IMG/VR virus record: IMGVR_UViG_3300025529_000020
Location: 1-37,835 of that record
Source of the DNA: a virus
Strand: one strand, 5' to 3'
Length of the DNA: 37,835 nucleotides
Shown: positions 8,660 to 37,835 of the stretch, piece by piece
Numbering within the stretch: the first letter of the stretch is position 1
How the letters are laid out: the number at the start of each line of letters is the position of its first letter
The notes under the pieces: model-generated
What the model was told of the DNA's origin: nothing
The model's database searches: none
The model's input: only the letters and a program-made list of their open reading frames with translations
Program-made: the position numbers and the translations under genes

Positions 8660-9414
8660 GCATCACCTTCTCCTGCCTCGTCTTCCTTACGCCGCTGCTG
8701 TTCCAACTCACGGCGAAACGCGTTCAGGTTGGCATATTCAAGGTTGTCCCACATTGTCGCGTACTGCTGGGACGTTGGATGCAACCGGTAGCGACCCCTG
8801 CCAAAATACGGCTCAACAGTGCACTTGCAACCACGGTGCCAATGCCGCCCTGCCCCTGCAGCCCACGCGGACGAGTACACGGGACCGCGGGATGCCAACA
8901 TTGCGCAGAACGCACAACAGCGCGCACGCGCGATCCTTGCCCACCTCACTCGGCGTGGCTCCGCCTGCATGAGCGCGGCCAACGCGGTACGGCCACCCGC
9001 CATGGACGTGCGCGTAGCATCCAGACTCAGCGCTACAAGTGAACGCCGAGCAGCAGCCTCTTCAGCAAGCCCATCCTCCACGAGCGCGGTGACATACGCC
9101 GGACCCCAACGCGTCACCGACTCGCTCCATGCCCACGGATCCAGCTGATCCAGGATCACGGACGTGAACGGGTCTTGCACACCCTCGGCCGCACGAAACC
9201 GCTCATAGTACCTTTGCGCTGTTTCCGCGGACAACCGATACGCGGACGCTACCTCAGGAGCCTGCTCCGCCACCCATGAAGCGAACGCTGCAGGATCAAA
9301 CGCAACCTCGTCAGTCCACTCCGCCTCAAATGAACGGAGCAGGCTCTCCAGAATACCTAACTGAGCGGTGCGATGCGCTTCAGTGAGCACCGCACCAGCC
9401 TCAGTCACCGCCAC
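8656..9414 (-). CDS. Head morphogenesis / minor capsid protein (SPP1 gp7 / Mu F-like)
   Basis: Position immediately after portal; conserved His/Cys cluster (HWHRGCKC). Confidence 0.55.
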   Translation of the reverse strand: MAVTEAGAVLTEAHRTAQLGILESLLRSFEAEWTDEVAFDPAAFASWVAEQAPEVASAYRLSAETAQRYYERFRAAEGVQDPFTSVILDQLDPWAWSESVTRWGPAYVTALVEDGLAEEAAARRSLVALSLDATRTSMAGGRTALAALMQAEPRRVRWARIARARCCAFCAMLASRGPVYSSAWAAGAGRHWHRGCKCTVEPYFGRGRYRLHPTSQQYATMWDNLEYANLNAFRRELEQQRRKEDEAGEGDA

Positions 9415-10846
9415 CAGGATCCCCCTCCTCGACAGACAGAGAACCCCCGGAGGCCTCTACAGGAAGCGAAGTTTCGTCACCGCGGAGCAGCGTCGCGGCA
9501 ACCTCCGCAACATCCGTAGCCATATCCCGCTGTTTCAGCCGTTTCCACCTGCGAATCTGGAACGGCGTAACACCCGGGATCAGTTCCCACAACGCCTCTG
9601 CAGGGATGCCCAACATGGTGGCCAGTTTGCCGAGAGCATCCGCGGAAGCAGCGAGAGATCGTGCTTCTGTGTCGCGCCACACAACACGAGCACGGGTGTT
9701 CTCCGCATCCTCGAATTGTCCTGCAGCAAACGCCAAAAGACGGAATACACGCGACCATGCTTCTCCGAAAACCGCCTTTCTTTCCGAGACTTTTCTTGAC
9801 AGCCCCGCTTCCGCGGCTGCCAGCGCTTCCGCGCTAATGTTGACCAGCCCACCGAGAAGATAGTGTGGCGGCACTTGCGCAATAGTCGCCATGTGTTTAA
9901 TGGCAGATTCTTGCGACGCAAGATACCCCGTCAAATCCGTTTCCGTGAACTCACCGAATCTTGCGTCTTTAGACGCGGTAGTCCACAGTCGGTTCACCGC
10001 GGCCTCGAACGGCTCAATCGGCCGCCCGGTTTCCGGATCGCGGGGAATCTCCACACCGGTAGCCCATTTCTGCTTAAACGCCGCATACTGCTGAGCGATC
10101 AGCAAGCCCAACGTTGTATCGTTCAGGCGATCCTGCAGCGGGATAAGCGGCCACACCTCGCCGAGCTCCGCGATCCGCACATCCGGATCATCAGTCCACT
10201 GATTGCGGAAAACCACCACGGGACACACACCGAACGGGTGAGTCCAAGAATCCAACAGCCTGTATTCCTGGACGTTCCCGTAATCTCCGGACGGAACCCA
10301 GAATGACCACACACCCTCAGCGTCCACGAGGTCCCACACATCGCCCACAAGTCCGAGTTCGTTTTTCACTCGGGATCGCGAGCGACGGATCGCATAGTCC
10401 GGATATTCCGCATCCGGATCCTCCTGAACCACATACATGGCCAGCGGGGAATACACGCGCGCCACGGGACCTGGATCGCCAGGCCACACCATCACGTACC
10501 CGTGTCCATACGTCAACGCGGACCGGTACACATGCATTTGGCGTGACAGCATCCCGTTAGCCACCCAATATTCCCACACGTTGAGGTTATCGGGATGCTC
10601 ATCATCACGGTAACCCTCGACATAGAGGTTTTGCGCCACCGTGGTGACGATCAAAGGAAGCCAATTCCCGATTGCTTCTTGGCGGAATCCCGAGAATTCA
10701 CCCTCGTGGGAGCGCGGCATGTACGAGGGATCGTGGAGACCCCGCATATACCTACGCACGCGGTCCAGCGCTTGTTCCTCGTCCACACGAGATCGCAGCG
10801 CGTGCGCCAACCGCTCCTCCGCAGTCACTGGACCGCCTCCTTTCAC
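9401..10846 (-). CDS. Portal protein
   Basis: 481-aa ORF directly downstream of terminase large subunit; acidic C-terminus. Confidence 0.8.
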   Translation of the reverse strand: MKGGGPVTAEERLAHALRSRVDEEQALDRVRRYMRGLHDPSYMPRSHEGEFSGFRQEAIGNWLPLIVTTVAQNLYVEGYRDDEHPDNLNVWEYWVANGMLSRQMHVYRSALTYGHGYVMVWPGDPGPVARVYSPLAMYVVQEDPDAEYPDYAIRRSRSRVKNELGLVGDVWDLVDAEGVWSFWVPSGDYGNVQEYRLLDSWTHPFGVCPVVVFRNQWTDDPDVRIAELGEVWPLIPLQDRLNDTTLGLLIAQQYAAFKQKWATGVEIPRDPETGRPIEPFEAAVNRLWTTASKDARFGEFTETDLTGYLASQESAIKHMATIAQVPPHYLLGGLVNISAEALAAAEAGLSRKVSERKAVFGEAWSRVFRLLAFAAGQFEDAENTRARVVWRDTEARSLAASADALGKLATMLGIPAEALWELIPGVTPFQIRRWKRLKQRDMATDVAEVAATLLRGDETSLPVEASGGSLSVEEGDPGGGD

Positions 10847-13884: not shown

Positions 13885-13910
13885 AGTGTTACAGGTCCCG
13901 GTGCGCGCTC
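13885..13910 (-). promoter_or_regulatory. Conserved motif site 1 (GTTACAGGTCC ... GCGCGC), candidate phage promoter/operator
   Basis: One of five copies of the same motif, all in intergenic DNA upstream of minus-strand operons. Confidence 0.5.
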
Positions 13911-13917
13911 TCCTAGA

Positions 13918-14018
13918 GGGTGACGAGTGACGAGTTTTTTCGTAGTTTTAGATTGTTCTATATGTATGTATATAGAGCAATATAAAACTAATGTTTAAAT
14001 CGTCATTCGTCATCACTC
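13918..14018. repeat. AT-rich island A, bounded by inverted repeats GTGACGAGTGACGAG / TCGTCATTCGTCATCAC
   Basis: About 65 bp of AT-rich DNA with nested palindrome CTATAT...ATATAG in an otherwise GC-rich genome, flanked by imperfect 15-bp inverted arms. Confidence 0.6.
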
Positions 14019-14030
14019 ACCCCATCTCCT

Positions 14031-15635
14031 CTACTCCGCGTAGACCGCTCCCTCACTCTCCGCGCTCTCCCCAGCGTCTGCCCATTCGATCCGCAGTCGG
14101 TGCGGACCAACGGTGCGTGGCTGTCCGAGTCTTACCGGGTAGATGATGACCCTGTTGATCGCGAGGTGGAGTAGGTCCCGCACCAGCGCTCGCTGTCCGC
14201 GTTCCACTGCGTCCCGCATCGCATCTGCCAGCGTTTCCGGATCGTCCACGAACCCCAAGTCCAACGTTGCTTGTGACCGCGCGATAGCGGCCTGCAGCTC
14301 TCGGAGTTCCGCGGACAGTGACCGCATCTCCGAGACGAACAGCTCCGGAGCGTCCTCGTAGGCTCCTGCCCTGAACGCGTCGTGGAGTCTTTGACGTACG
14401 GTCTCGATTTCTTGGATCCGTGCGCGCTTCGCCGCGATTTCTTCGGACTCGCTTGGTTGTTGTCGAGCTGTCCACCGCTCAGCGATGATCAGTGCGAGCA
14501 TGTCCGTGGGTTCAAGCGCGGTTATTCGGTTGAGCCACTCGGCGATCACGAGCTGCTCTGCGCGTTCTCTGGTGATCCGCGCTGGTGCGGGACATGTGGC
14601 TATCGCGGACGTGACGGATGCGCACACCTGTTGCACACCGGATGCTGGTGCGGAGCGTCCGCATGTGCCACACACCGCGATCCCGGTCAGGATGTGTTTT
14701 CTGTGTCTCGCAGTGGGGCGTACGATGCGGCGACGTGTAGAAAACGTGGTGATGTTCTTTGTGAGCCTTTCGAGGAGCTGCTCTCGCTCGTCCGGCGTGA
14801 GCACACCTTCCCCGATGCTGACGAGTCGACCTTCCTCGTCACGGTAAGGTTCTACCAGGTGGGATTTGCCGTTGTTTGCGCGGCCCGCTACCTGCAGCCC
14901 TGCGATTGCGGGGTTGGTGATCAGGCTGATGTAGGTCGTGACGTACCAGATGCCTCCACTGGGGCCGCGGATGCCGAGTTCGTTCTGTTCAGCAACCACG
15001 CTACGCGCTGAGCGTCCGCCGAGAATCTGTTCCGCTCCCCAACGCAGGACCTGGGCACGCGTTCGACCGTCTTCGGTCGGTGTGGTGTAGTCGGGACGTA
15101 CCTTCCGTGTTTTCGGATCTAAGAGGAGTCCCCACGGCACGCTTCCCCCGATCCATTCTCCGTCTCGGCGTTGCCGGGCCTTGCTGATGTGGATTCTGTG
15201 GGATAGGTCAACGCTGTACTGTCGAGCACGCTCCGCCTCATCGATGATGTGGCGACGGTCATGCTCGTCCAGCGTGTCGTAGCGGTCCCAGTAGAAGATG
15301 ACCCGGTGCTTGCCCAGCATGGGGAGTACGTCTTCTGCGCCTCGACGAGTAAGGCGGTCCAGCCTGAAAACCCACAGTGCCTCGACTTCTCCGCGTTGTA
15401 GTGCGGCAAGTGCCTTTCGGAACACCGGCCGTTCCCGGTCCGCGTATGCGGAGCCTAATTCTCGCCACACGTGCCGTACTTGGCTGCCTACCTGTGCTGC
15501 CCAGTGCCGGCCGATTTCCTCCTGTTCCCGGATGGAGACTTCGCGTAGGCGGTCGCCTTCGGAGAGAACCCGGGATTTCCTCACGTACAGGTCCACCGTT
15601 TTTGGTGGTGGGAGTAGTTGGGAGTGGGGGAACAC
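14031..15635 (-). CDS. Large serine recombinase (phage integrase)
   Basis: N-terminal resolvase-type catalytic motif VDLYVRKSRVLSEG...RLDRLTRR, central recombinase domain, Cys-rich zinc ribbon (CGTCGR...C...C) and coiled-coil C-terminus; GTG at 15635 with GGAGG RBS. Confidence 0.8.
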   Translation of the reverse strand: MFPHSQLLPPPKTVDLYVRKSRVLSEGDRLREVSIREQEEIGRHWAAQVGSQVRHVWRELGSAYADRERPVFRKALAALQRGEVEALWVFRLDRLTRRGAEDVLPMLGKHRVIFYWDRYDTLDEHDRRHIIDEAERARQYSVDLSHRIHISKARQRRDGEWIGGSVPWGLLLDPKTRKVRPDYTTPTEDGRTRAQVLRWGAEQILGGRSARSVVAEQNELGIRGPSGGIWYVTTYISLITNPAIAGLQVAGRANNGKSHLVEPYRDEEGRLVSIGEGVLTPDEREQLLERLTKNITTFSTRRRIVRPTARHRKHILTGIAVCGTCGRSAPASGVQQVCASVTSAIATCPAPARITRERAEQLVIAEWLNRITALEPTDMLALIIAERWTARQQPSESEEIAAKRARIQEIETVRQRLHDAFRAGAYEDAPELFVSEMRSLSAELRELQAAIARSQATLDLGFVDDPETLADAMRDAVERGQRALVRDLLHLAINRVIIYPVRLGQPRTVGPHRLRIEWADAGESAESEGAVYAE

Positions 15636-15744: not shown

Positions 15745-15762
15745 TGGTCCGCTGATTGGTGC

Positions 15763-15853
15763 GGGACCATCCCCACATGCGTGGGGAGCAGGTTTTGAGG
15801 TCCGTCTAGAGTAAATCCAGGCCGGGACCATCCCCACATGCGTGGGGAGCAGG
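15763..15853. repeat. Two 30-bp direct repeats GGGACCATCCCCACATGCGTGGGGAGCAGG (15763-15792 and 15824-15853), each with an internal hairpin
   Basis: Exact 30-bp duplication with 61-bp period; each copy contains palindrome CCCCAC-ATGC-GTGGGG. Confidence 0.8.
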
Positions 15854-17323: not shown

Positions 17324-18034
17324 CTAGGCGACCTGTTCCCGGCCGGTGCCACCGCACTCACCGCACGCGATCGGCGGGGTGGCATCGTCCACCGGGAGTT
17401 CCCCATATCCGCCGCACGGGCGGCAGGACGGGGGGTTGGCCTGCACGTCCGCCTTGTAGGCGGACTCCAGCCCCTTCAGGGCCGAGAGCGCGGCCCGGGT
17501 CTCCGCCCGGAGCCGAGCGGAGATGAACTGCATCTGTTCCAGGACGGTGAGCTTCCGCACCCCATCCCGGAACGCGTTCACGCTGCCTCGGCGAACCTCG
17601 GCGGCGGCCTCCAACAGCTCCGAGGCTCCCCGACGATCCCGGTCTTCGGTGATCGCCGTTTCTGCGACTCGGATGAACATATCAGCGGCCGTGGTGCGCG
17701 GGGAGGCTGCCATTACCCGCGCGAGGGCGCGGGCCCGCACAGGCTTCCCGTTGACCCGCTCCACGTTAGTGGGGACGACCAGGTCAGTCCGGTGACTGGC
17801 GCGCTCCGCCACGGGGCGAGCGACCACATAAACCACACCGGGCTGAGGGGAGGGGAGAACGTCGTCCGCGTCTCCCAACGCCTCCCGGACCACGGGGATT
17901 CCGTTGATCTCCCCGTCCGGGTAGGTCTCGGCGGGGAGCCGAACCGGGGTCGCCTCCGGCTGGATTACCACCTCGTCCCCGTTCGCGGTGACGAGCGTGA
18001 CGGGGTGCGGGGTGAGGTTGACGATTCTGGTCAT
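17324..18034 (-). CDS. Hypothetical protein with C-terminal DnaJ-type CxxCxGxG zinc-finger pair
   Basis: ATG at 18034 with GGAGG RBS; C-terminus CRPCGGYG...CGECGGTG. Confidence 0.5.
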   Translation of the reverse strand: MTRIVNLTPHPVTLVTANGDEVVIQPEATPVRLPAETYPDGEINGIPVVREALGDADDVLPSPQPGVVYVVARPVAERASHRTDLVVPTNVERVNGKPVRARALARVMAASPRTTAADMFIRVAETAITEDRDRRGASELLEAAAEVRRGSVNAFRDGVRKLTVLEQMQFISARLRAETRAALSALKGLESAYKADVQANPPSCRPCGGYGELPVDDATPPIACGECGGTGREQVA

Positions 18035-18065
18035 TGGAACCTCCAGGGGTTTCGTTGTGGTTTCC

Positions 18066-18095
18066 ACATTAGCATGATTGAGCAGTGCTGAGCAA
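18066..18095 (-). promoter_or_regulatory. Sigma-70-like promoter (TTGCTC - 18 nt - TAATGT) for gene 17324..18034
   Basis: Hexamers with 18-nt spacer read on the minus strand; spacer AGCACTGCTCAA resembles the two other promoters. Confidence 0.45.
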
Positions 18096-18495: not shown

Positions 18496-18524
18496 ACTAT
18501 ACCCCATTGCTCAGTACTGCGCAA
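18496..18524 (-). promoter_or_regulatory. Sigma-70-like promoter (TTGCGC - 17 nt - TATAGT)
   Basis: Minus-strand TTGCGC AGTACTGAGCAATGGGG TATAGT immediately after a terminator and upstream of the RBS/ATG at 18461. Confidence 0.6.
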
Positions 18525-19539: not shown

Positions 19540-19580
19540 CCTATTGGGGTTACAGGTCCTGGTCTCCGGTAGCGCGCGGG
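19540..19580 (-). promoter_or_regulatory. Conserved motif site 2 (GTTACAGGTCC ... GCGCGC)
   Basis: GTTACAGGTCC at 19549-19559 and GCGCGC at 19572-19577, between sigma gene stop and next gene start. Confidence 0.5.
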
Positions 19581-19602: not shown

Positions 19603-20556
19603 TTACGCGGCTGCCAGCTCGACTACTACCCGCCTCAGCTTTCTCAGCGCAGCGGCCTTGAGGGAACGTACACGTCCGGGATCGATTCCCATGATGTGCG
19701 CGGTCTCGGCGACACTGAGTTCCGGACCGCCCAGTCCGGTCAGGTGTACCAGTGCCTCACGCTCCCGGGGGGACACGTGATCGAGCAGACGATGCACGAG
19801 GTCCCGAGTTTCCACACTGGCTAGTGCAGCGGCCGAGCGGTGGCACTCCGCCGTGTCCCCGATGGTCTGCGTGGCGCTCTCGTCACACAGTTCCGACACC
19901 GGGGTATCCACGGACACATAATGTAGGGCTTCGTGGATGGCATCGAACTGTGCGTAGGACAGACCACGTGCGGTTTTGTCGTCTAGCTGCTGTGCCACAT
20001 CTAGCCCTTCCCGCTCCCAGCGTTCAATACGGCGGTCCAGGATGGCGGCAGCCATGTCATCTCCGGAGTCCGCCATGTCCTGCAGTTCTCGGCCGGTCAA
20101 CCCCTCACGGTGGGCCCATTCGCGTGCGAGTACCGGGTCGTGTCCACACGCTTCCATGGCTCTCCAGTAGCGGTGCTGTGCGGACGAGGAGATGCGGAAC
20201 GGGGAGCTGGCTACAGCGGCCTCCCTCACAGCGTTCTGGATGTGGCGATACGCCACGGTCATAGGTTCTGCAGAACCATCCGGGTCGTAGTCTCGCAGAA
20301 CCTCCACCAGCGCCATTAGCGCGGCCTGGTAGAGGTCCGCGTACTCCGCACTACGCTGGTAGTTTCTGACCAGGTGGTGGATCTGGTCTTCGTAACGTGC
20401 GGCAAGGATGACAAGCCCTTCGTCTCCGTACGCGGGGAGCTGACGGTTGGGGACGTGATCAAGGCCCAGACGTTCTTCGTAGGCACGTGCGGCGGTGCGG
20501 ACTGTGGCACGGACGATGTGTGCGGGGGATCTGGTGGCGATCAGTTCATCCAACAT
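19603..20556 (-). CDS. Phage-encoded sigma-70 family RNA polymerase sigma factor
   Basis: Region 2-like segment DLYQAALMALVEVLRDYDP and region 4-like HTH LSVAETAHIMGIDPGRVRSLKAAALRKLRR. Confidence 0.75.
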   Translation of the reverse strand: MLDELIATRSPAHIVRATVRTAARAYEERLGLDHVPNRQLPAYGDEGLVILAARYEDQIHHLVRNYQRSAEYADLYQAALMALVEVLRDYDPDGSAEPMTVAYRHIQNAVREAAVASSPFRISSSAQHRYWRAMEACGHDPVLAREWAHREGLTGRELQDMADSGDDMAAAILDRRIERWEREGLDVAQQLDDKTARGLSYAQFDAIHEALHYVSVDTPVSELCDESATQTIGDTAECHRSAAALASVETRDLVHRLLDHVSPREREALVHLTGLGGPELSVAETAHIMGIDPGRVRSLKAAALRKLRRVVVELAAA

Positions 20557-20633
20557 GGCGACTCCGTGAGTTGATTCACGGGCCCTGGACTACGCCACGT
20601 CCAGGGCCCACATTGTGGCGGTGGGGGTAGCGG

Positions 20634-20948
20634 TTAGGCAGTGGGGTCATCCCAAGAGTGGATGACCTGAGTTAGGCGGTTGGTGGCCTGCTGCAAGACG
20701 GTGATCGCGTGGCGCACGTCCGGATCCCGGGTGATGCGACGCAGCTCGTCTGCCACACGTTGTCTACGTGGGCAGAGAACCGCCTCCTCTACCGGACGAG
20801 GGACTCCATCAGTGGCCATAGTGCCGCTCCTTGGGGATAGCGGGCTACGCAACACAGACAGTTCGTCTGCCAGTGCCACCGCGCGGGAGAACGCGAGTGG
20901 TGTGGCGACCATGTGCGGGAGTGATTGACGTGGTTTCATAGTACACAC
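20634..20948 (-). CDS. Hypothetical protein (104 aa or shorter)
   Basis: ORF between endonuclease VII-like gene and sigma factor gene; start uncertain. Confidence 0.4.
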   Translation of the reverse strand: MCTMKPRQSLPHMVATPLAFSRAVALADELSVLRSPLSPRSGTMATDGVPRPVEEAVLCPRRQRVADELRRITRDPDVRHAITVLQQATNRLTQVIHSWDDPTA

Positions 20949-28786: not shown

Positions 28787-29614
28787 CTAGGTTCGCCGCT
28801 GTGTGCCAGTCAACAACTGTCCGCCAGTCGCCAACGGGGATCCCAACACTGCCCGTGCCTCCTCACGCTGCCACGTGAGTGCCTCACGGAGCGCCAGAAA
28901 CACCTGATGCATTTCTGCATCCACTCGGACCGGTACCAGTGACCACCGCTCCGGGGTCACGTGGAGCACTGCGCCGCCATCCACACGCGGCATGTCCCGG
29001 GAAGTACCGTCTACGCCGATCAGGCGATCTGCGTACGCGTACGCGGACAACTGCAACGCAACAGTGGGATACACGTCACGGGACGTTTTCCAGTCCACGA
29101 TGATCAGATGCGGAGTCCCTGATCTGTCCGGGGTGGGGGTACGGTCCGGAGCCAGCCAGACACGCAGCAGAGCATCAAAGCTGCCTGCGTACCGAAACCT
29201 GTCCGACCACACCACCTCCTCAGCTGCCACGAGCTCAGGACGTACCGTGTCCAGAAACTCCGCAAAATGATTGCGGTACGGGACGAGGTCGTGCTCCACG
29301 TAACGCGGAGACTCCCCCCTGAGCATGCGCTCAAACAGATCGTGAGCTTTGCTGCCCAGCTCAGCTCGTGCTTGCGTATACCGCCGTGGCGCGGCCTTGA
29401 GCAGGTCTATCGCGGCGGTGGGGTCTGTCTGGACCAGGCCTTGTACCGTATTCCAGTTCTCCACCGCGTACGTTGCCACAGTTTTCGCGGCCCACGGTGG
29501 TAAGAAAGGCTTGTCCAGGACGCTGATGATAGAGGTTACCCCAGGCACTTTGGTGCCAGTGTCGGGGTCCACATACCAGCGCGCTCCCCCACGGGTGAGG
29601 GTTCGGATGGTCAT
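28787..29614 (-). CDS. PD-(D/E)xK (RecB/Cas4-like) exonuclease
   Basis: Motifs D...LIIVDWKTSR and QLSAYAYA (QxxxY); ATG at 29614 with AAAGGAGC RBS. Confidence 0.6.
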   Translation of the reverse strand: MTIRTLTRGGARWYVDPDTGTKVPGVTSIISVLDKPFLPPWAAKTVATYAVENWNTVQGLVQTDPTAAIDLLKAAPRRYTQARAELGSKAHDLFERMLRGESPRYVEHDLVPYRNHFAEFLDTVRPELVAAEEVVWSDRFRYAGSFDALLRVWLAPDRTPTPDRSGTPHLIIVDWKTSRDVYPTVALQLSAYAYADRLIGVDGTSRDMPRVDGGAVLHVTPERWSLVPVRVDAEMHQVFLALREALTWQREEARAVLGSPLATGGQLLTGTQRRT

Positions 29615-29635
29615 ATGTCGCTCCTTTCGCTGTAT

Positions 29636-29672
29636 TCCTAGTTACAGGTCCGCAGCGTGGGGAGCGCGCGTA
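29636..29672 (-). promoter_or_regulatory. Conserved motif site 3 (GTTACAGGTCC ... GGGGAGCGCGCG) with adjacent A5T5 tract
   Basis: First copy of a tandemly duplicated ~117-bp promoter-like unit upstream of the exonuclease gene. Confidence 0.5.
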
Positions 29673-29752
29673 CCGTGGCAGAAAAATTTTTGGTCGACGT
29701 GCTCCGCACCTGGTGAGGGTTCGGATCGCCACGTCGCCCCTTCCGGATCTGT

Positions 29753-29790
29753 CTCTAGTTACAGGTCCGCGGCGGTGGGAGCGCGCGGGT
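29753..29790 (-). promoter_or_regulatory. Conserved motif site 4 (tandem duplicate of site 3)
   Basis: Second copy: GTTACAGGTCC at 29758-29768, GCGCGC at 29781-29786, A4T4 tract at 29798-29808. Confidence 0.5.
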
Positions 29791-29883
29791 CGCGGCAGAA
29801 AATTTTCTGACCGACGTAGCTGCAGCGGGATGGGCACGGAGAGTGAGGGCATGCCCTACGCGGAGTAGAGGAGATGGGGGAGT

Positions 29884-29977
29884 GGTGACGAGTGACGATT
29901 TAGACCTTGTTTTTGTAGTGCTATAGGAGAACCCATAGAACAATGCAAAAACAGGGTCTACATCGTCACTCGTCACC
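29884..29977. repeat. AT-rich island B, bounded by perfect 16-bp inverted repeats GGTGACGAGTGACGAT / ATCGTCACTCGTCACC
   Basis: Perfect 16-bp inverted arms, inner inverted repeat AGACCTTGTTTTTG/CAAAAACAGGGTCT, AT-rich centre. Confidence 0.7.
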
Positions 29978-30048: not shown

Positions 30049-30732
30049 CTACCCCAGCGCGGAGCGCAGTACGGCCACGCTTTCTTCAAGCGACACTATC
30101 GCGGCCTGGATCGTTTCCCGCGGCTTACCGGTCAGCGCCACGGTGGCAGACACCGCATCCCTTGCCGCGGTCACGTTCCGTACGTCCTCAGCCAGCTGGC
30201 TCACCGCGCGCACCACATCCTCCGGTGGGCTGTCGGGGTGTACTGTGATGGCCTCTAGTCGACGTAGCGCAGTTTCCGCGCGCTGCCGCTGGCGCTCTCG
30301 GCGTTCCGCCTGCCGTTCTTTCGGCGGTGTCGGGGTGATGCCGTAGTGCGCCAGCGCTTCCGGCGTGTACAGTCCGTTAGCGCGCATGTAGTCGATCCGC
30401 AGCGCTGCCACGTGGTATCTGATCAGCGACTGTAGAGACGCTTCGGAGTCGCTGGGGATGCCGGCTTTCTCATACAGCTGCTGGACTGCTTCCCGGTATC
30501 CCGGGGACGTGCCGCACAGATCTGGCCAACCATCCTTATCCCGGTAGCGTGCCCGCAGATGCAGCACTACCAGCGCTAGGTTGCGTGCTGTTTGTGTCGC
30601 ACGGCCCTGCAGTCTCACATAGTCGCGCACCAGTTTTGCGCCACGGTCGATGAGCTCGTGTACAGGTGCGTCATCCTGGAACACCGTGGCCTCGTCATCT
30701 CGCGGTGGAGTTACCAGCTGTAGTTGTGTCAT
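30049..30732 (-). CDS. Hypothetical protein (227 aa)
   Basis: ATG at 30732; Arg/Glu-rich helical segment ERQAERRERQRQRAE. Confidence 0.45.
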   Translation of the reverse strand: MTQLQLVTPPRDDEATVFQDDAPVHELIDRGAKLVRDYVRLQGRATQTARNLALVVLHLRARYRDKDGWPDLCGTSPGYREAVQQLYEKAGIPSDSEASLQSLIRYHVAALRIDYMRANGLYTPEALAHYGITPTPPKERQAERRERQRQRAETALRRLEAITVHPDSPPEDVVRAVSQLAEDVRNVTAARDAVSATVALTGKPRETIQAAIVSLEESVAVLRSALG

Positions 30733-31464: not shown

Positions 31465-31561
31465 GCTGACATCCCCCATTCCTATGTGTGGAGTACAGTC
31501 TATCGGTTGCGCAGTATGGGGCAACGGCCCCGGGAAGCGTTACCCGGGGCCGCTGTCGACG

Positions 31562-32401
31562 TTACGCCGGAACTGTCGTGGCCAGTTTCCGTCGCGCGTC
31601 GCGTAGCACGTTCCTTCCCCAGCGGTCCGTGCGTCCGTAGCGGGTCCCGATTTCCGCTCCGGTGAGCGTGGTTCCGTTCCGGAGCTGTTCCGCGACCCAT
31701 TCGACAGCGGAACGGCGTTCCGCGCTGTGCGGGGGTACCACGGACACCGGAACGGTCGTAGGGGCTCCCTCCTCCACTACCGGAACGCGGACATTCCGTT
31801 CCTCGTCCCGCTGTTGTTCCTCGTTCCGCTCTTCGTTCCGCGCTGTTCCGCTCTTCGTTCCGCTGCTGTTCCGTTCCTCGTTCCGTTCCTCGTCCCCCGG
31901 TTGTTCCGTGTTCCGTTCCTCGTCCCGTTCCCCATTCCGCTGTTGTTCCTCGTCCCGTTCCTCGTTCCGCTCTTCGTTCCGTTCCTCGTTCCGCTGCTGT
32001 TCCGCCCTGTTCCGTCTACCTGCAGCAAGGGCCACCGACGCAACGACCACTAGTCCATCTACAGACAGTGGCAGCAGGATGGCCACAAGCTCCGACTCCC
32101 CGTACTGGAGCAGGAGCCCGCGCATGTGACCGTAGGAGACCACGGCCGCGGCCAGCGCTACGAGGAAAGCTCCCACCCACTCAACTGCGGACAGCAGTCC
32201 ACGCGGACGCTGTCCACGAACCATCATCTCTGCGACCAACAGCAGCGCTACCGGTGCCCATGCCGCAAACAGCATGGCACCGATGTCTGTTCCGTCCGCG
32301 TTCCGTTCCGCGGCGTGTGCCACGTTCGCGGCGATGCTGGCTCCTGCGCCGAGTAGGAACGCTGTCCAGGGGATGGCGTTTGATCTCGGTTTTCCGCTCA
32401 C
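31562..32401 (-). CDS. Membrane protein with central EERN tandem-repeat low-complexity region (start uncertain)
   Basis: Three or more hydrophobic helices, then (EERN)n repeats, then Arg-rich C-terminus; first possible start after the upstream gene stop is GTG at 32401. Confidence 0.45.
   Translation of the reverse strand: MSGKPRSNAIPWTAFLLGAGASIAANVAHAAERNADGTDIGAMLFAAWAPVALLLVAEMMVRGQRPRGLLSAVEWVGAFLVALAAAVVSYGHMRGLLLQYGESELVAILLPLSVDGLVVVASVALAAGRRNRAEQQRNEERNEERNEERDEEQQRNGERDEERNTEQPGDEERNEERNSSGTKSGTARNEERNEEQQRDEERNVRVPVVEEGAPTTVPVSVVPPHSAERRSAVEWVAEQLRNGTTLTGAEIGTRYGRTDRWGRNVLRDARRKLATTVPA
31790..32015. repeat. Imperfect tandem array of GTTCC(G/T)-containing units (about 12-bp period) encoding EERN repeats
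   Basis: Plus strand reads TTCCGTTCCTCGTTCCGCT... repeatedly; translates as EERNEERNEERDEE on the minus strand. Confidence 0.8.
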
Positions 32402-32514
32402 TCGTGGGTTCTCCGTTCCGTTCCGCTGTTTCCGTTCCGGGGCTTCCGTTCCGCCAGCGGTCCGGGAATTCCGTTCCGCTGGCGTTCCTCTACTTCCGTT
32501 CCGCTGGTGTTCCT
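32402..32514. repeat. Iteron-like array: five direct copies of TTCCGTTCCGC(T/C)(G/A)G (minus-strand CCAGCGGAACGGAA) in intergenic DNA
   Basis: Copies at about 32414, 32431, 32445, 32470 and 32494 between the stop of gene 32515..32937 and the start of the membrane protein gene. Confidence 0.7.
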
Positions 32515-32937
32515 CTACTCCCGCTCCGCCACTCGGTGACCGTGTTCCGTGGCCTCCACGTAAACCGCTCCAGCCTTCCGAAACGCCCTCAGCATCCCCC
32601 GCTCCAAGAGCGCAGTGATATGGCGTGCGGTTACTCCTGCAGCGCGGCACGCACTCGGCGACATGTGCAGCGCTCCGTTCTTGATGATGGTGCGCAGTGC
32701 GTTCCGCTGCTTCGCCGAGAGTGTGCGCGCGTTGAGCCGTCGTCCGCGACGCACTGCTTCCGCGGCCTGTTCGGGGGTTGTATACCGGAACGATAGATAA
32801 CCCACCCCCAACAGGTAGGCCCTCCACGGCCGAGCGGGGTTGTCGCCACGCCAAGAGACCAGGCCGATGATCTCGGGGCCGTTCTCACTGAGAACCACGC
32901 GCTCTGGGCGGGACGGGCGGTTGTTCTGTGTGGTCAT
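32515..32937 (-). CDS. Hypothetical protein (140 aa), possibly DNA-binding
   Basis: ATG at 32937 with GGAGG RBS downstream of terminator H3; Arg/Lys-rich. Confidence 0.45.
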   Translation of the reverse strand: MTTQNNRPSRPERVVLSENGPEIIGLVSWRGDNPARPWRAYLLGVGYLSFRYTTPEQAAEAVRRGRRLNARTLSAKQRNALRTIIKNGALHMSPSACRAAGVTARHITALLERGMLRAFRKAGAVYVEATEHGHRVAERE

Positions 32938-33353: not shown

Positions 33354-33383
33354 AATATAGCAGACTTGCTCAGTACTGCGCAA
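33354..33383 (-). promoter_or_regulatory. Sigma-70-like promoter (TTGCGC - 18 nt - TATATT)
   Basis: Minus-strand TTGCGC AGTACTGAGCAAGTCTGC TATATT; spacer nearly identical to the promoter at 18496-18524. Confidence 0.6.
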
Positions 33384-33989: not shown

Positions 33990-34036
33990 GTAGGACCTAT
34001 AGGTGTTACAGGTCCCAGCACCGGGGAGTGCGCGTA
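33990..34036 (-). promoter_or_regulatory. Conserved motif site 5 (GTTACAGGTCC ... GGGGAGTGCGCG) with GGACCT...AGGTCC inverted repeat
   Basis: GTTACAGGTCC at 34005-34015; overlaps the stop codon of the upstream holin-like gene. Confidence 0.5.
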
Positions 34037-35981: not shown

Positions 35982-37835
35982 CTATAGTCCGACAATCGCT
36001 CCGCGGAACAGTCGAATCTCCGTTCCCGCCGTATGGGGTTTGTGGATCCCGTTGGTAGCGCGCTGCACAGTGAACGTCTGCGTGGTGCCTGTTCCGGAGA
36101 TCGAGGCCACGCGTACAAGCTCCCCACCAACGAACATGTCCACAGGAAACGCCTGCGGCTCTTCTTCCGTGGTCACCCAGCGCGGTCCCCGAGTGGTGCG
36201 CACCGTGAACGTGGTTTGGACGCTGTCAACGTCCTCGTCCAGCTCCGCACCGGCAGTGTCAGCGCGGCACTGATCCTGCGGACCCACGTCCCCATCCGGA
36301 TCCGCGATCACCCCAATGAGCAGCGGTCCACCGGACGAGGCATTGAACGTCACCTCCCACGTGTGCGGGCCTAGACGCTCCTCATAGCCCTCGATCTGCA
36401 GTTCGATGGGCTCTGGTGGTAGCCACGGCGGTGGGTTGATGATCTGCAGGGCATCCCCCGAGTCGCGCACAGCCACGATGTCGACGAGGCCAGGGTTGCG
36501 TGCCAGGTTGATCGTGACCGTGGGGTACCGGGCATCGTCCCACGTGCCCAGGTGCAGCCGCCAATGCGCTAGGTCCCACAATTGACGTTCGTGGGCTGCA
36601 TGTAACGTCTCGGACTGCTCGTAGCGTCCCACGCCCAGTGGAGGCGGCTGCACTGATAGTGCGCCTTCCTCCAGCACCGCGCGGTACTCCGTACCCCGTG
36701 GCATGCTCACGGTCACATCATTAGCTAGCCGCTGGTCATCCTCGATAGGCTCCCACGGCTCGCTGATGTGTCCCGCACTGTAGTCCAGCACCACGGACAC
36801 CGCGGTATCGGTACGCGCTCGGCCACGGAACACCAGTCCCCCACGTGCCGCACACGTGCCGTGTTTGCGTGCTGTGGCGAACTCCCCCACGGTCATGCCG
36901 CCGAGAGCACTCCCACGGCCGTGGTGGAGCACATCAACGTGGTGGGATCCCACATGCATCCCGCCGAGCGCATCCGTGACCGCGGTGCGAGAACCCGCAA
37001 CTGCAGCACCGTCCACCGTGAAACGGCTCACGGCCGCACCCTGCGGTACCGCGTACCCTGATGCATGACCACCAAAGCTCAGGCCACCGGACGCTGTCGC
37101 GCCAGCTCGACGAGCCTCAGCGTGACCGCCCATGGTCAGCCAGTGCATCGCCCACGTCCAGCGTGGCGGTGGTGCGGGGCCGAGTGGACCGTCATCGGCG
37201 ACAGCTACGTGGGACACCCACAGTGAGGGTGGGTAGCCCTGGCCGCGGTGAAGACGTAGCGCAAGGTCGATTGCCGCCAACGTTTCAGGACCGACAACAC
37301 CATCGACTGGTAGCCCGTAGTCAGCCTGAAACGCTTGGACCGCTGTGACCGTTTCCCCACCATAGTCGCCATCCGCACCGTACAGCGGCAGCGGATACCC
37401 CAGCTCGAGCAGGGCTTCCTGCATGGCGGTGATTTCCGTATCCCCACGCGAAGCATCCGACTGGCCAGGGAGCAAGATGATACCGCGGCGGTAGCGGTAC
37501 CCGGTCAGCACCAGCTGGCCATGGAACGTGTACCCATTCCAACGGTGGATCCGTGTACGGTCACCAGCGGGGTTTGTCACCCGAGACTCGAAGAAGGCAC
37601 TTCCATCAGTATGGAATTCGACCAACCACCACTGGCCGATGGGGACCGCGTTACCTGTCTCTTCTGTCCAGTTGATAGCTGTTGCGGCCAGATCGTCAGG
37701 CTGGAGCCGAGTCCCGATGTTGCCGGACGCGGTCTCGTGAACCACCCATCCCAGCCCCGCAGTCGGGAAATGCGCGACCCAGCGCACCTCGTTGATCCCG
37801 TGTCCCGCTGCCTGCAGTCCCGGTGCCCACATGTA
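35982..37835 (-). CDS. Tail protein with peptidoglycan-binding domain (3' portion; N-terminus wraps to 385-1)
   Basis: 616-aa ORF reaching the window edge; PG-binding-like segment ITAMQEALLELGYPLPLYGADGDYGGETVTAVQAFQADYGLPVDGVVGPETLAAI; in frame with the upstream ATG at 385. Confidence 0.6.
   Translation of the reverse strand, partial: YMWAPGLQAAGHGINEVRWVAHFPTAGLGWVVHETASGNIGTRLQPDDLAATAINWTEETGNAVPIGQWWLVEFHTDGSAFFESRVTNPAGDRTRIHRWNGYTFHGQLVLTGYRYRRGIILLPGQSDASRGDTEITAMQEALLELGYPLPLYGADGDYGGETVTAVQAFQADYGLPVDGVVGPETLAAIDLALRLHRGQGYPPSLWVSHVAVADDGPLGPAPPPRWTWAMHWLTMGGHAEARRAGATASGGLSFGGHASGYAVPQGAAVSRFTVDGAAVAGSRTAVTDALGGMHVGSHHVDVLHHGRGSALGGMTVGEFATARKHGTCAARGGLVFRGRARTDTAVSVVLDYSAGHISEPWEPIEDDQRLANDVTVSMPRGTEYRAVLEEGALSVQPPPLGVGRYEQSETLHAAHERQLWDLAHWRLHLGTWDDARYPTVTINLARNPGLVDIVAVRDSGDALQIINPPPWLPPEPIELQIEGYEERLGPHTWEVTFNASSGGPLLIGVIADPDGDVGPQDQCRADTAGAELDEDVDSVQTTFTVRTTRGPRWVTTEEEPQAFPVDMFVGGELVRVASISGTGTTQTFTVQRATNGIHKPHTAGTEIRLFRGAIVGL
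37709..37835. repeat. Terminal direct repeat: exact duplicate of 1-127
   Basis: Identical to window start; an ORF reads through the junction in frame. Confidence 0.9.

Follow-up and report, generated by a model that had tools for sequence, protein, structure and literature searches.

A φC31 gp12-like sigma-70 family factor predicted in a temperate actinophage genome, with two classes of candidate promoter

Introduction

Sigma-70 family proteins encoded by phages are a known kind of protein, and phiEco32 gp36 and SPO1 gp28 and gp33-34 (PMC8948821, PMC12276001) are examples with a demonstrated role, redirecting the core RNA polymerase of the host to promoters departing from the host consensus. 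These phages are lytic, belong to hosts among the Proteobacteria or Firmicutes, and express sigma from host-type promoters for the transcription of middle or late genes. A closer counterpart to the case considered here is gp12 of the temperate Streptomyces phage φC31, whose gene follows the DNA polymerase gene, whose RefSeq annotation is 'RNA polymerase sigma factor', and whose family numbers at least 79 proteins from Streptomyces phages and prophages, mostly labelled sigma-70 family. Here, we mainly focus on a gene for a predicted sigma-70 family factor in a 37,835-nucleotide stretch of viral DNA (IMG/VR record IMGVR_UViG_3300025529_000020, positions 1 to 37,835; hereafter, the window, meaning the whole of this stretch), along with the repeated promoter-like motifs that accompany it. 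The protein is a new member of the phage sigma-70 proteins and belongs to a previously uncharacterised sequence family.

Streptomyces genetics relies heavily on φC31, which has supplied an integrase, vectors based on attP (the phage attachment site), and a repressor. The φC31 promoters were reportedly mapped experimentally in the 1990s, and to our knowledge they have never been assigned to a form of RNA polymerase; the literature searched contains no paper that deals with the early promoters of φC31, tests gp12 function, or makes such an assignment. The window is collinear with φC31, and its sigma gene takes the place that gp12 has there, in the φC31 order of primase gp9a, polymerase gp11, sigma, small genes, and serine integrase. 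In each genome, a motif recurs in several copies between genes on one strand, and the junctions at which it stands, such as the one right after the sigma gene, are shared. With phiEco32 and SPO1 it would share the concept of a phage sigma-70 protein steering the host core RNA polymerase, a role that is predicted here from sequence. Unlike those phages, the window is temperate and of actinobacterial type, its sigma gene lies inside an operon headed by the sigma factor's presumed own promoter, and the presumed sigma motif heads replication genes too.

The sigma gene and its product

A sequence-only reading of the window had placed a 317-amino-acid (aa) protein at this locus without naming a strand. 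The open reading frame (ORF) listing contains this protein on the minus strand, starting with ATG at 20556 and running to 19603, and the plus-strand frame over the same interval is riddled with stop codons. A GGAG Shine-Dalgarno sequence (20562-20565) lies 7 nt 5' of the ATG, and the N-terminus MLDELIAT is common to relatives of 78-92% identity. Both peptide signatures named in that reading are present: the region-2-like segment DLYQAALMALVEVLRDYDP (aa 74-92) falls within a match to Pfam Sigma70_r2 (PF04542; aa 52-111), which exceeds its gathering cut-off by a narrow margin (25.9 bits against 24), and the region-4-like helix-turn-helix LSVAETAHIMGIDPGRVRSLKAAALRKLRR (aa 280-309) falls within a match to Sigma70_r4 (PF04545; aa 257-308; 34.4 bits against 24.1). 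The hidden Markov model check that it had proposed for regions 2 and 4 therefore leaves both profiles above their curated cut-offs. In addition, NCBIfam TIGR02937 spans aa 51-309 at 64.3 bits (cut-off 42.9), and the PHROG family phrog_351, 'RNA polymerase sigma factor', matches at 6e-19.

The predicted fold agrees with these assignments. The AlphaFold model has a predicted local distance difference test (pLDDT) score of 74 and contains three confident helical domains (aa 12-116, 124-212, and 248-316), joined before the last by a disordered linker (aa 213-247), as expected of a region 3.2 'σ finger' that is not bound to RNA polymerase. Foldseek comparison with the PDB returned sigma factors for all of the top 50 matches (probability 1.00, approximately 300 columns, E from 3e-6), and the top matches among the BFVD viral models are all phage sigma factors, so that the structure prediction, like the region 2 and region 4 profiles, upholds membership of the sigma-70 family. 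Template modelling scores were low (0.2-0.35) because the arrangement of domains in the free state differs from that in the RNA-polymerase-bound state.

In a PDB profile search, the family aligns with regions 2 and 3.2-4.2 of SigA, SigB, and RpoS (E down to 2e-18). Region 2 aligns with SigA regions 2.2-2.4, with the housekeeping 'TYATWWIRQ' corresponding to 'TVAYRHIQN' here, and the segment reading 'YVSVDTPV...' in the window, or 'VSLDAPV...D' in the family profile, aligns with the SigA region 3.2 signature and is followed by regions 4.1-4.2. Approximately 140 residues separate σ2 from σ4, comprising a six-helix domain and the region-3.2-like motif. The best-conserved part of the family alignment is a block of approximately 90 residues between regions 2 and 4, with the pattern RYWxAM..AREW..LTGxELQDxAD..ILDxRIxRWER..GRGL..FDAIH. 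This middle domain has no match to Sigma70_r3 (PF04539) and its identity as σ3 is not demonstrable, and assignment as a canonical σ3 was accordingly dropped; it is family-specific and the most constrained part of the protein, and for this reason the factor is not a minimal extracytoplasmic function (ECF) sigma.

The ratio of nonsynonymous to synonymous substitution rates (dN/dS) of the gene is 0.16-0.23 (0.16-0.20 against three lineages), indicating purifying selection; the values for the separate parts of the protein are 0.08-0.10 (middle domain), 0.11-0.29 (σ2), 0.12-0.21 (σ4), and 0.4-1.6 (linker, where constraint is relaxed). The sigma gene is thus a working gene under constraint, and we consider it very probable that it encodes a functional subunit of the sigma-70 family.

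Relationship to φC31 gp12 and distribution of the family

BLASTP and phmmer found no similarity between the window sigma and gp12, and a profile of the window family scored only 6.7% against the single gp12 sequence. When the profiles of the two families were compared, the score rose to 95.1% (E = 3.2e-8) over 259 columns extending from σ2 to σ4 at 19% identity; this alignment also spans the block just after region 2, and the homology lies at the depth of the sigma-70 superfamily. On these alignments and its position, the window sigma is best described as a remote homologue and positional equivalent of gp12 that forms a separate sequence family. Both proteins exceed the Sigma70_r2 cut-off (26.7 bits for gp12), but gp12 is longer (396 aa), carries a long extra segment before σ4, and has no Pfam r4 match. 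In φC31 (labelled L001 among the comparison genomes and contigs, which bear L-numbers), 475 bp without an annotated gene lie between gp11 and gp12 (29484-29957), a slot that is occupied in the window group by the genes for endonuclease VII and a DUF7169 protein.

A HMMER search of 1.84 billion representatives returned approximately 14 full-length relatives at 34-45% identity, followed by generic sigma-70 matches, and this exhaustive search found no close cellular family; a word-indexed database search adds members of 27-29% identity, which keep the order primase, polymerase, endonuclease VII, DUF7169, sigma, and then integrase. The exact protein is present on 15 metagenome contigs, and a scan of 185,579 reference genomes found no copy. 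Against GenBank phages, megablast (3.5 kb) and tblastn of the sigma (E = 1e-5) found no relatives, and tblastn at E up to 1 gave only weak matches to other phage sigmas.

Group 3 sigma factors (FliA/WhiG, SigB/F/G), together with the SigF-like proteins of Bacillus phages, share the three-domain layout and the region-3.2-like linker, and group 3-type phage sigmas are the best viral structural neighbours of the window protein. It differs from them in its family-specific middle domain, without Sigma70_r3, and in failing the FliA/WhiG and SigB/F/G subfamily models, lying far below the subfamily cut-offs; weak matches were seen to TIGR02479 (35.2 against a cut-off of 189.6) and TIGR02980 (30.2 against 234.35).

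Two classes of promoter-like sequence

The 11-mer GGACCTGTAAC occurs five times in the window against 0.03 expected, always on the minus (coding) strand and always between genes. Four of the copies belong to the two-block form GCGCRCTnCC-N8-GGACCTGTAAC, for which 0.00 were expected, giving the consensus GCGCRCT-N11-GGACCTGTAAC of what we term class P. Copies stand 26-34 nt before a Shine-Dalgarno sequence and start codon (26 nt for the motif at 29641-29669) and are distributed over the heads of operons as listed in Table 1. The sequence-only reading had set the sigma gene directly upstream of its 'motif site 2', and this site is indeed a class-P motif, beginning 26 nt past the sigma stop codon. 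In lineages whose sigma is 70-94% identical, both blocks are kept, as is a short third block, TAnTAGG, while the spacers drift. Beyond class P and the class H described below, no other repeated motif resembling a promoter turned up in the window.

Several repeats surround the early class-P copies. A 117-bp tandem duplication (29638-29700/29755-29817, and also 29580-29613/29698-29731) copies the promoter and the first ~15 codons of the exonuclease gene, resulting in two class-P promoters in series, an arrangement also found in the near-identical contigs L002, L004, L005, and L008. A 45-nt palindrome (29881-29925/29936-29980) lies 5' of these promoters. The region just downstream of the integrase gene (13973-14072) shows inverted similarity of 80-83% over approximately 100 nt with 29827-29925; both regions contain TCGTCACTCGTCAC elements, one of them directly 5' of the late class-P copy, and these are candidate operators, possibly counterparts of the CCTACTCACGTGAGTAGG palindromes of φC31.

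The second class, termed class H, has the housekeeping-type -35/-10 geometry expected of promoters for host σA. The pattern TTGCGC-N16-18-TAnnnT has four matches against 0.00 expected. The class-H spacers hold an 18-bp near-palindrome, TTGCKCAGTACTGMGCAA, and a GC-rich hairpin usually lies just upstream. These sites were located through the spacer palindrome; a generic promoter scan missed them because TTGCGC matches TTGACA at only 3/6 positions. The palindrome looks like a putative operator overlapping the promoter. Similar palindromes, TTGTGCAGCGCTGCACAA, are carried by the relatives L014 and L015.

Motif and sigma across divergent lineages

Comparable motifs accompany the sigma gene in distant genomes. 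In φC31, the motif is GGGTTGCCGACTCCCTTAC, in contrast to GCGCRCT-N11-GGACCTGTAAC in the window, with 10-11 copies against five of class P; these lie between genes on one strand, with a Shine-Dalgarno sequence and start codon 14-40 nt further on. They include copies at the four junctions of the window: ahead of gp52 (deoxynucleoside monophosphate (dNMP) kinase) and of gp1 (exonuclease), and behind gp12 and int, the copy behind int being a variant at 40564. The window 11-mer itself is absent from φC31, and the idea that the two phages share one and the same motif was dropped. In the relatives L014-L016, the motif has the general two-block form GCGAACAY-N11-14-...TAAC: L014 has six copies of GCGAACAC-N~14-GGGGCCGTAAC, L015 has five of GCGAACAY-N11-GGGAGCCCTAAC, one of them directly after the sigma gene, and in L016 one instance, CCGAACAC...GGGAGCCCTGAC, was seen, likewise directly after the sigma gene. 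All versions terminate in ...TAAC or ...TTAC.

The upstream block and the recognition helix of σ4 both differ between the window lineage and L014-L016, a correlation of two states only: GCGCRCT against GCGAACA corresponds to DPGRVRSLKAAALRKL against SRPRVVNxRxAAxARM. The sigma gene and a two-block motif travel together across very divergent genomes.

Proposed circuit and alternative explanations

Combining these observations, we regard the protein as probably a sigma subunit, remotely homologous to gp12, that directs the host polymerase to class-P lytic promoters; for the single proposition that class P is the target of the phage sigma, the balance tips modestly in favour. The sigma would bind the host core RNA polymerase and direct it to class-P promoters, where σ4 would read the upstream block GCGCRCT and σ2 the downstream block GGACCTGTAAC, with the conserved start region next to it. 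Class P heads the lytic operons for dNMP kinase, for exonuclease and replication, for the genes after sigma, and for HNH, terminase, and structural proteins. The host housekeeping σA would serve the four class-H promoters, which precede the repressor gene and genes of lysogeny- or moron-like appearance. A small starting amount of sigma would commit the phage to lytic transcription, and in a lysogen the repressor would block this step. The sigma gene closes a ~9-kb operon headed by class P, which would make the circuit self-reinforcing; the late (terminase) operon has the same motif in front of it.

A positive-feedback switch governing lytic transcription as a whole seems a closer description of this layout than a linear cascade. 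The temporal cascade envisaged by the sequence-only reading, from host sigma to phage sigma to late genes, is a poor fit to a sigma gene that sits inside an operon headed by class P, and its suggestion of a 'takeover' of host RNA polymerase is not borne out, as four good promoters of host σA type remain in the genome.

Several points weigh against the proposed role. No host-type promoter lies directly 5' of the sigma gene, which leaves its first expression unexplained; the first sigma may arise because a host sigma recognises class P at a basal level, or because transcription from the class-H promoter at 31524 reads through the repressor gene. The Pfam region 2 margin is narrow and the middle domain is not demonstrably σ3. 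The correlation between σ4 helix and promoter rests on two states only, and the GCGAAC of the L015 upstream block forms one half of a palindrome in some cases, so that it might be an operator half-site instead of a -35 element. At the late operon (13888-13898), the motif copy has no upstream block at the standard spacing. Finally, the literature searched contains no experiment tying the window sigma or gp12 to any promoter.

Some of the same points would be accounted for if the sigma were real but class P were read by something else, either an alternative sigma of the host or host holoenzyme with another phage protein, leaving the phage sigma to act on other promoters, such as a late subset or host genes. 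Such an arrangement would be in keeping with the bootstrapping problem posed by a sigma gene downstream of class P, with the presence of class P before both replication and structural operons, so that it marks no single temporal class, and with the missing experimental link in the literature searched. We nonetheless consider it unlikely, given that no further repeated promoter-like motif turned up in the window, that motif and sigma change together from one lineage to the next, as would hardly be expected of a motif read by a conserved host sigma, and that the whole family and φC31 retain a motif copy immediately behind the sigma gene. Alternative sigmas are often autoregulated from their own promoter, which also bears on the bootstrapping argument. 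Less likely again is a sigma-derived protein that no longer initiates transcription, acting instead as a DNA-binding regulator through its σ4 helix-turn-helix or as a decoy for core RNA polymerase that shuts off host transcription. Relatives in the φC31-like phages Shawty and RemusLoopin are annotated only as 'DNA binding protein', the tryptophan pair that melts the -10 region in housekeeping sigmas is Tyr-Arg here, and the marginal region 2 score and the absence of a recognisable σ3 would suit such a protein. However, σ2, the middle domain, and σ4 are all constrained and the region-3.2-like linker is kept, none of which a plain helix-turn-helix regulator needs, and a cognate-looking two-block motif with -35/-10-like geometry is present; moreover, many working alternative sigmas do without the Trp-Trp pair. 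We rate this reading as quite improbable.

The remaining alternative, in which a common ECF (group 4) sigma was acquired from a host and the adjacent DUF7169 protein is its anti-sigma factor, seems very improbable and is largely refuted by domain architecture. Its appeal lies in the name 'sigma70-ECF' borne by the best NCBIfam model (TIGR02937), in a weak match to Sigma70_r4_2 and to several ECF equivalog models, in the small size of the protein, in the small conserved gene that always adjoins the sigma gene, and in the L014/L015 motif GCGAAC...CGTAAC, which recalls the 'GAAC ... CGT' of ECF promoters. Against it, the interval of ~140 residues between σ2 and σ4, with its conserved 90-residue domain and region-3.2-like motif, is unlike an ECF sigma, and for this reason the model name should not be read as an ECF assignment. 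Sigma70_r4_2 (PF08281; 24.7 against 25.7) and all specific ECF models (~20 bits against cut-offs of 140-210) fall under their cut-offs, and on these scores the ECF class was rejected. The distribution described above, with some 14 full-length relatives, no close cellular family, and no copy in the reference genomes scanned, also speaks against it, and the DUF7169 gene lies upstream rather than downstream of the sigma gene and encodes no detectable anti-sigma domain.

Genome setting and neighbouring genes

Bases 1-127 are 100% identical over 127 nt to bases 37709-37835, implying a circularly closed assembly with a true genome length of ~37,708 bp. The window represents the whole genome of a temperate siphovirus and matches Streptomyces phage φC31 in its order of genes, one by one; every long gene is on the minus strand. 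Read along that strand, the order begins with two lysins, dNMP kinase (PF21448), a DUF2637 protein, and a homologue of the φC31-type repressor c; it continues with a PD-(D/E)XK exonuclease, a Gp3-like recombination directionality factor, primase/helicase, DNA polymerase I, and endonuclease VII, then DUF7169, the sigma gene, several small ORFs, a large serine integrase, and HNH, and ends with terminase, portal, capsid, and tape measure. The serine integrase, the repressor c domain, and the Gp3-like factor support the earlier description of a small temperate-type phage, and the position of the sigma gene after primase, DNA polymerase I, and endonuclease VII, together with collinearity with the φC31 early region, supports its placement in the early region. 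The coordinates of the features discussed are collected in Table 1.

Table 1. Positions of the sigma gene, its domains, promoter-like motifs, and selected neighbouring features in the window
Feature	Positions	Strand	Support or remark
Predicted sigma-70 family gene, 317 aa, in the φC31 gp12 slot	19603..20556	minus	Pfam, TIGR02937, phrog_351, dN/dS
σ2 core (aa 52-111; region 2, core binding, -10 recognition)	20224..20403	minus	PF04542, SigA alignment
Family-specific six-helix middle domain (aa 124-212), at the σ3 position	19921..20187	minus	
Region-3.2-like acidic linker (aa 213-247), predicted disordered	19816..19920	minus	SigA alignment, pLDDT <50
σ4 (aa 257-308; region 4.2 helix-turn-helix, -35 recognition)	19633..19788	minus	PF04545, SigA/RpoS/SigB alignment
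Class-P motif GCGCGCTACC-N8-GGACCTGTAAC, before 67-aa gene ('motif site 2')	19549..19577	minus	
Class-P motif before exonuclease gene, opening the replication operon whose last gene is sigma	29641..29669	minus	
Class-P motif, second copy inside the 117-bp tandem duplication	29758..29786	minus	Repeat families D8, D20
Class-P motif before dNMP kinase gene	34005..34033	minus	
Class-P downstream block GGACCTGTAAC only, between integrase gene and HNH/terminase late operon	13888..13898	minus	
Class-H TTGCGC-N18-TATATT, palindrome in spacer, before the genes after dNMP kinase	33354..33383	minus	
Class-H TTGCCC-N16-TAGACT, before 239-aa ORF and repressor c gene	31497..31524	minus	
Class-H TTGCGC-N17-TATAGT, after terminator hairpin, before 103-aa gene	18496..18524	minus	
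Class-H TTGCTC-N18-TAATGT, before 236-aa gene	18066..18095	minus	
DUF7169 gene, directly 5' of sigma gene	20634..20939	minus	PF23773, 29.9 bits against 27
Two adjacent hairpins in the sigma-gene 5' leader, the second overlapping GGAG	20564..20607	minus	RNA fold -38.2 kcal/mol, z = -2.5
φC31-type repressor c homologue (lysogeny control)	30049..30732	minus	PF25746, 37.2 bits against 27; also called in L002, L004
Large serine integrase (temperate lifestyle)	14031..15635	minus	phrog_95 at 2e-57; Resolvase and Recombinase Pfam domains; start set from the 534-aa call in the relative contig L002

The DUF7169 gene adjoins the sigma gene in every lineage examined (L002-L007, L010, L013, L014, L015, and L018), including those of 27-29% identity; in the more distant relatives, it lies at 9499-9885 (L014), 9377-9625 (L015), and 1146-1445 (L018). 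Its product has no informative PDB or NCBIfam match and no recognisable anti-sigma domain, and it may be a functional partner of the sigma, whether as an anti-sigma factor, a co-factor, or an appropriator. The two hairpins in the leader of the sigma gene would be suited to attenuation or translational control.

The window primase is ~52% identical to the primases of φC31, φBT1, and TG1, and the window has no nucleotide-level relative among 50,697 GenBank phages. A primase scan found only a 682-bp orphan contig plus distant primases. The orphan (L019; JAFIDK010000072.1, from Algoriphagus aestuarii KCTC 42199) carries a primase fragment 95% identical to that of the window; on the basis of base composition and the relatives of the phage, it is most likely contamination of a Bacteroidota assembly rather than a host signal. 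A 236/247-aa protein (17324-18067, minus strand, phrog_21731) is 81-84% identical to hypothetical proteins of the Thermobifida fusca phages P318 and P1312, a likeness that suggests recent exchange and may hint at a thermophilic actinomycete host. The window contains no tRNA genes.

Further features were noted elsewhere in the genome. Two large proteins, encoded at 742-2205 and 35982-37832 on the minus strand, flank the assembly junction and share a match to phrog_5313; the latter of the two has a peptidoglycan-binding domain and a phosphodiesterase-like region as well. They may be tail-associated lysin or tail-fibre-like paralogues. Dense short GTTCCG/CGTTCC repeats at 31790-32000 and 32430-32530 lie inside a 430-aa ORF (31562-32854, DUF2637), where they probably encode a low-complexity acidic or Asn-rich repeat region. 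The 31-nt sequence CGGGACCATCCCCACATGCGTGGGGAGCAGG, itself containing a palindrome, is repeated directly and without mismatch at 15762-15792 and 15823-15853, 61 nt apart. The repeat lies between a DUF8280 gene and position 15635, where the integrase probably starts, and may have to do with attP or with how expression of the integrase is controlled.

Biological significance

As an annotation, the result is routine: pipelines already call such proteins sigma-70 family, as the JGI pipeline does for a distant member of this one, and the finding is solid without being surprising to a specialist. What the analysis adds is a predicted cognate promoter, a two-class promoter layout, a conserved DUF7169 partner, and a family-specific middle domain. 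The window contributes a second, very divergent branch of the gp12-type sigma, and comparison of the branches turns the pairing of sigma and motif into a testable proposition in four genome lineages.

A broader interpretation is advanced more tentatively, and we stop slightly short of expecting it to hold in full. Sigmas of the gp12 type would read the repeated non-canonical lytic promoters of φC31-like temperate actinophages, the σ4 helix and upstream block having co-diverged into orthogonal sigma/promoter pairs within a feedback switch gated by the repressor, and the middle domain would be a new module replacing σ3 that contacts RNA polymerase or DNA. If true, this would explain the control of lytic genes in a wide group of temperate actinophages and would provide compact orthogonal sigma/promoter parts for high-GC Gram-positive hosts.

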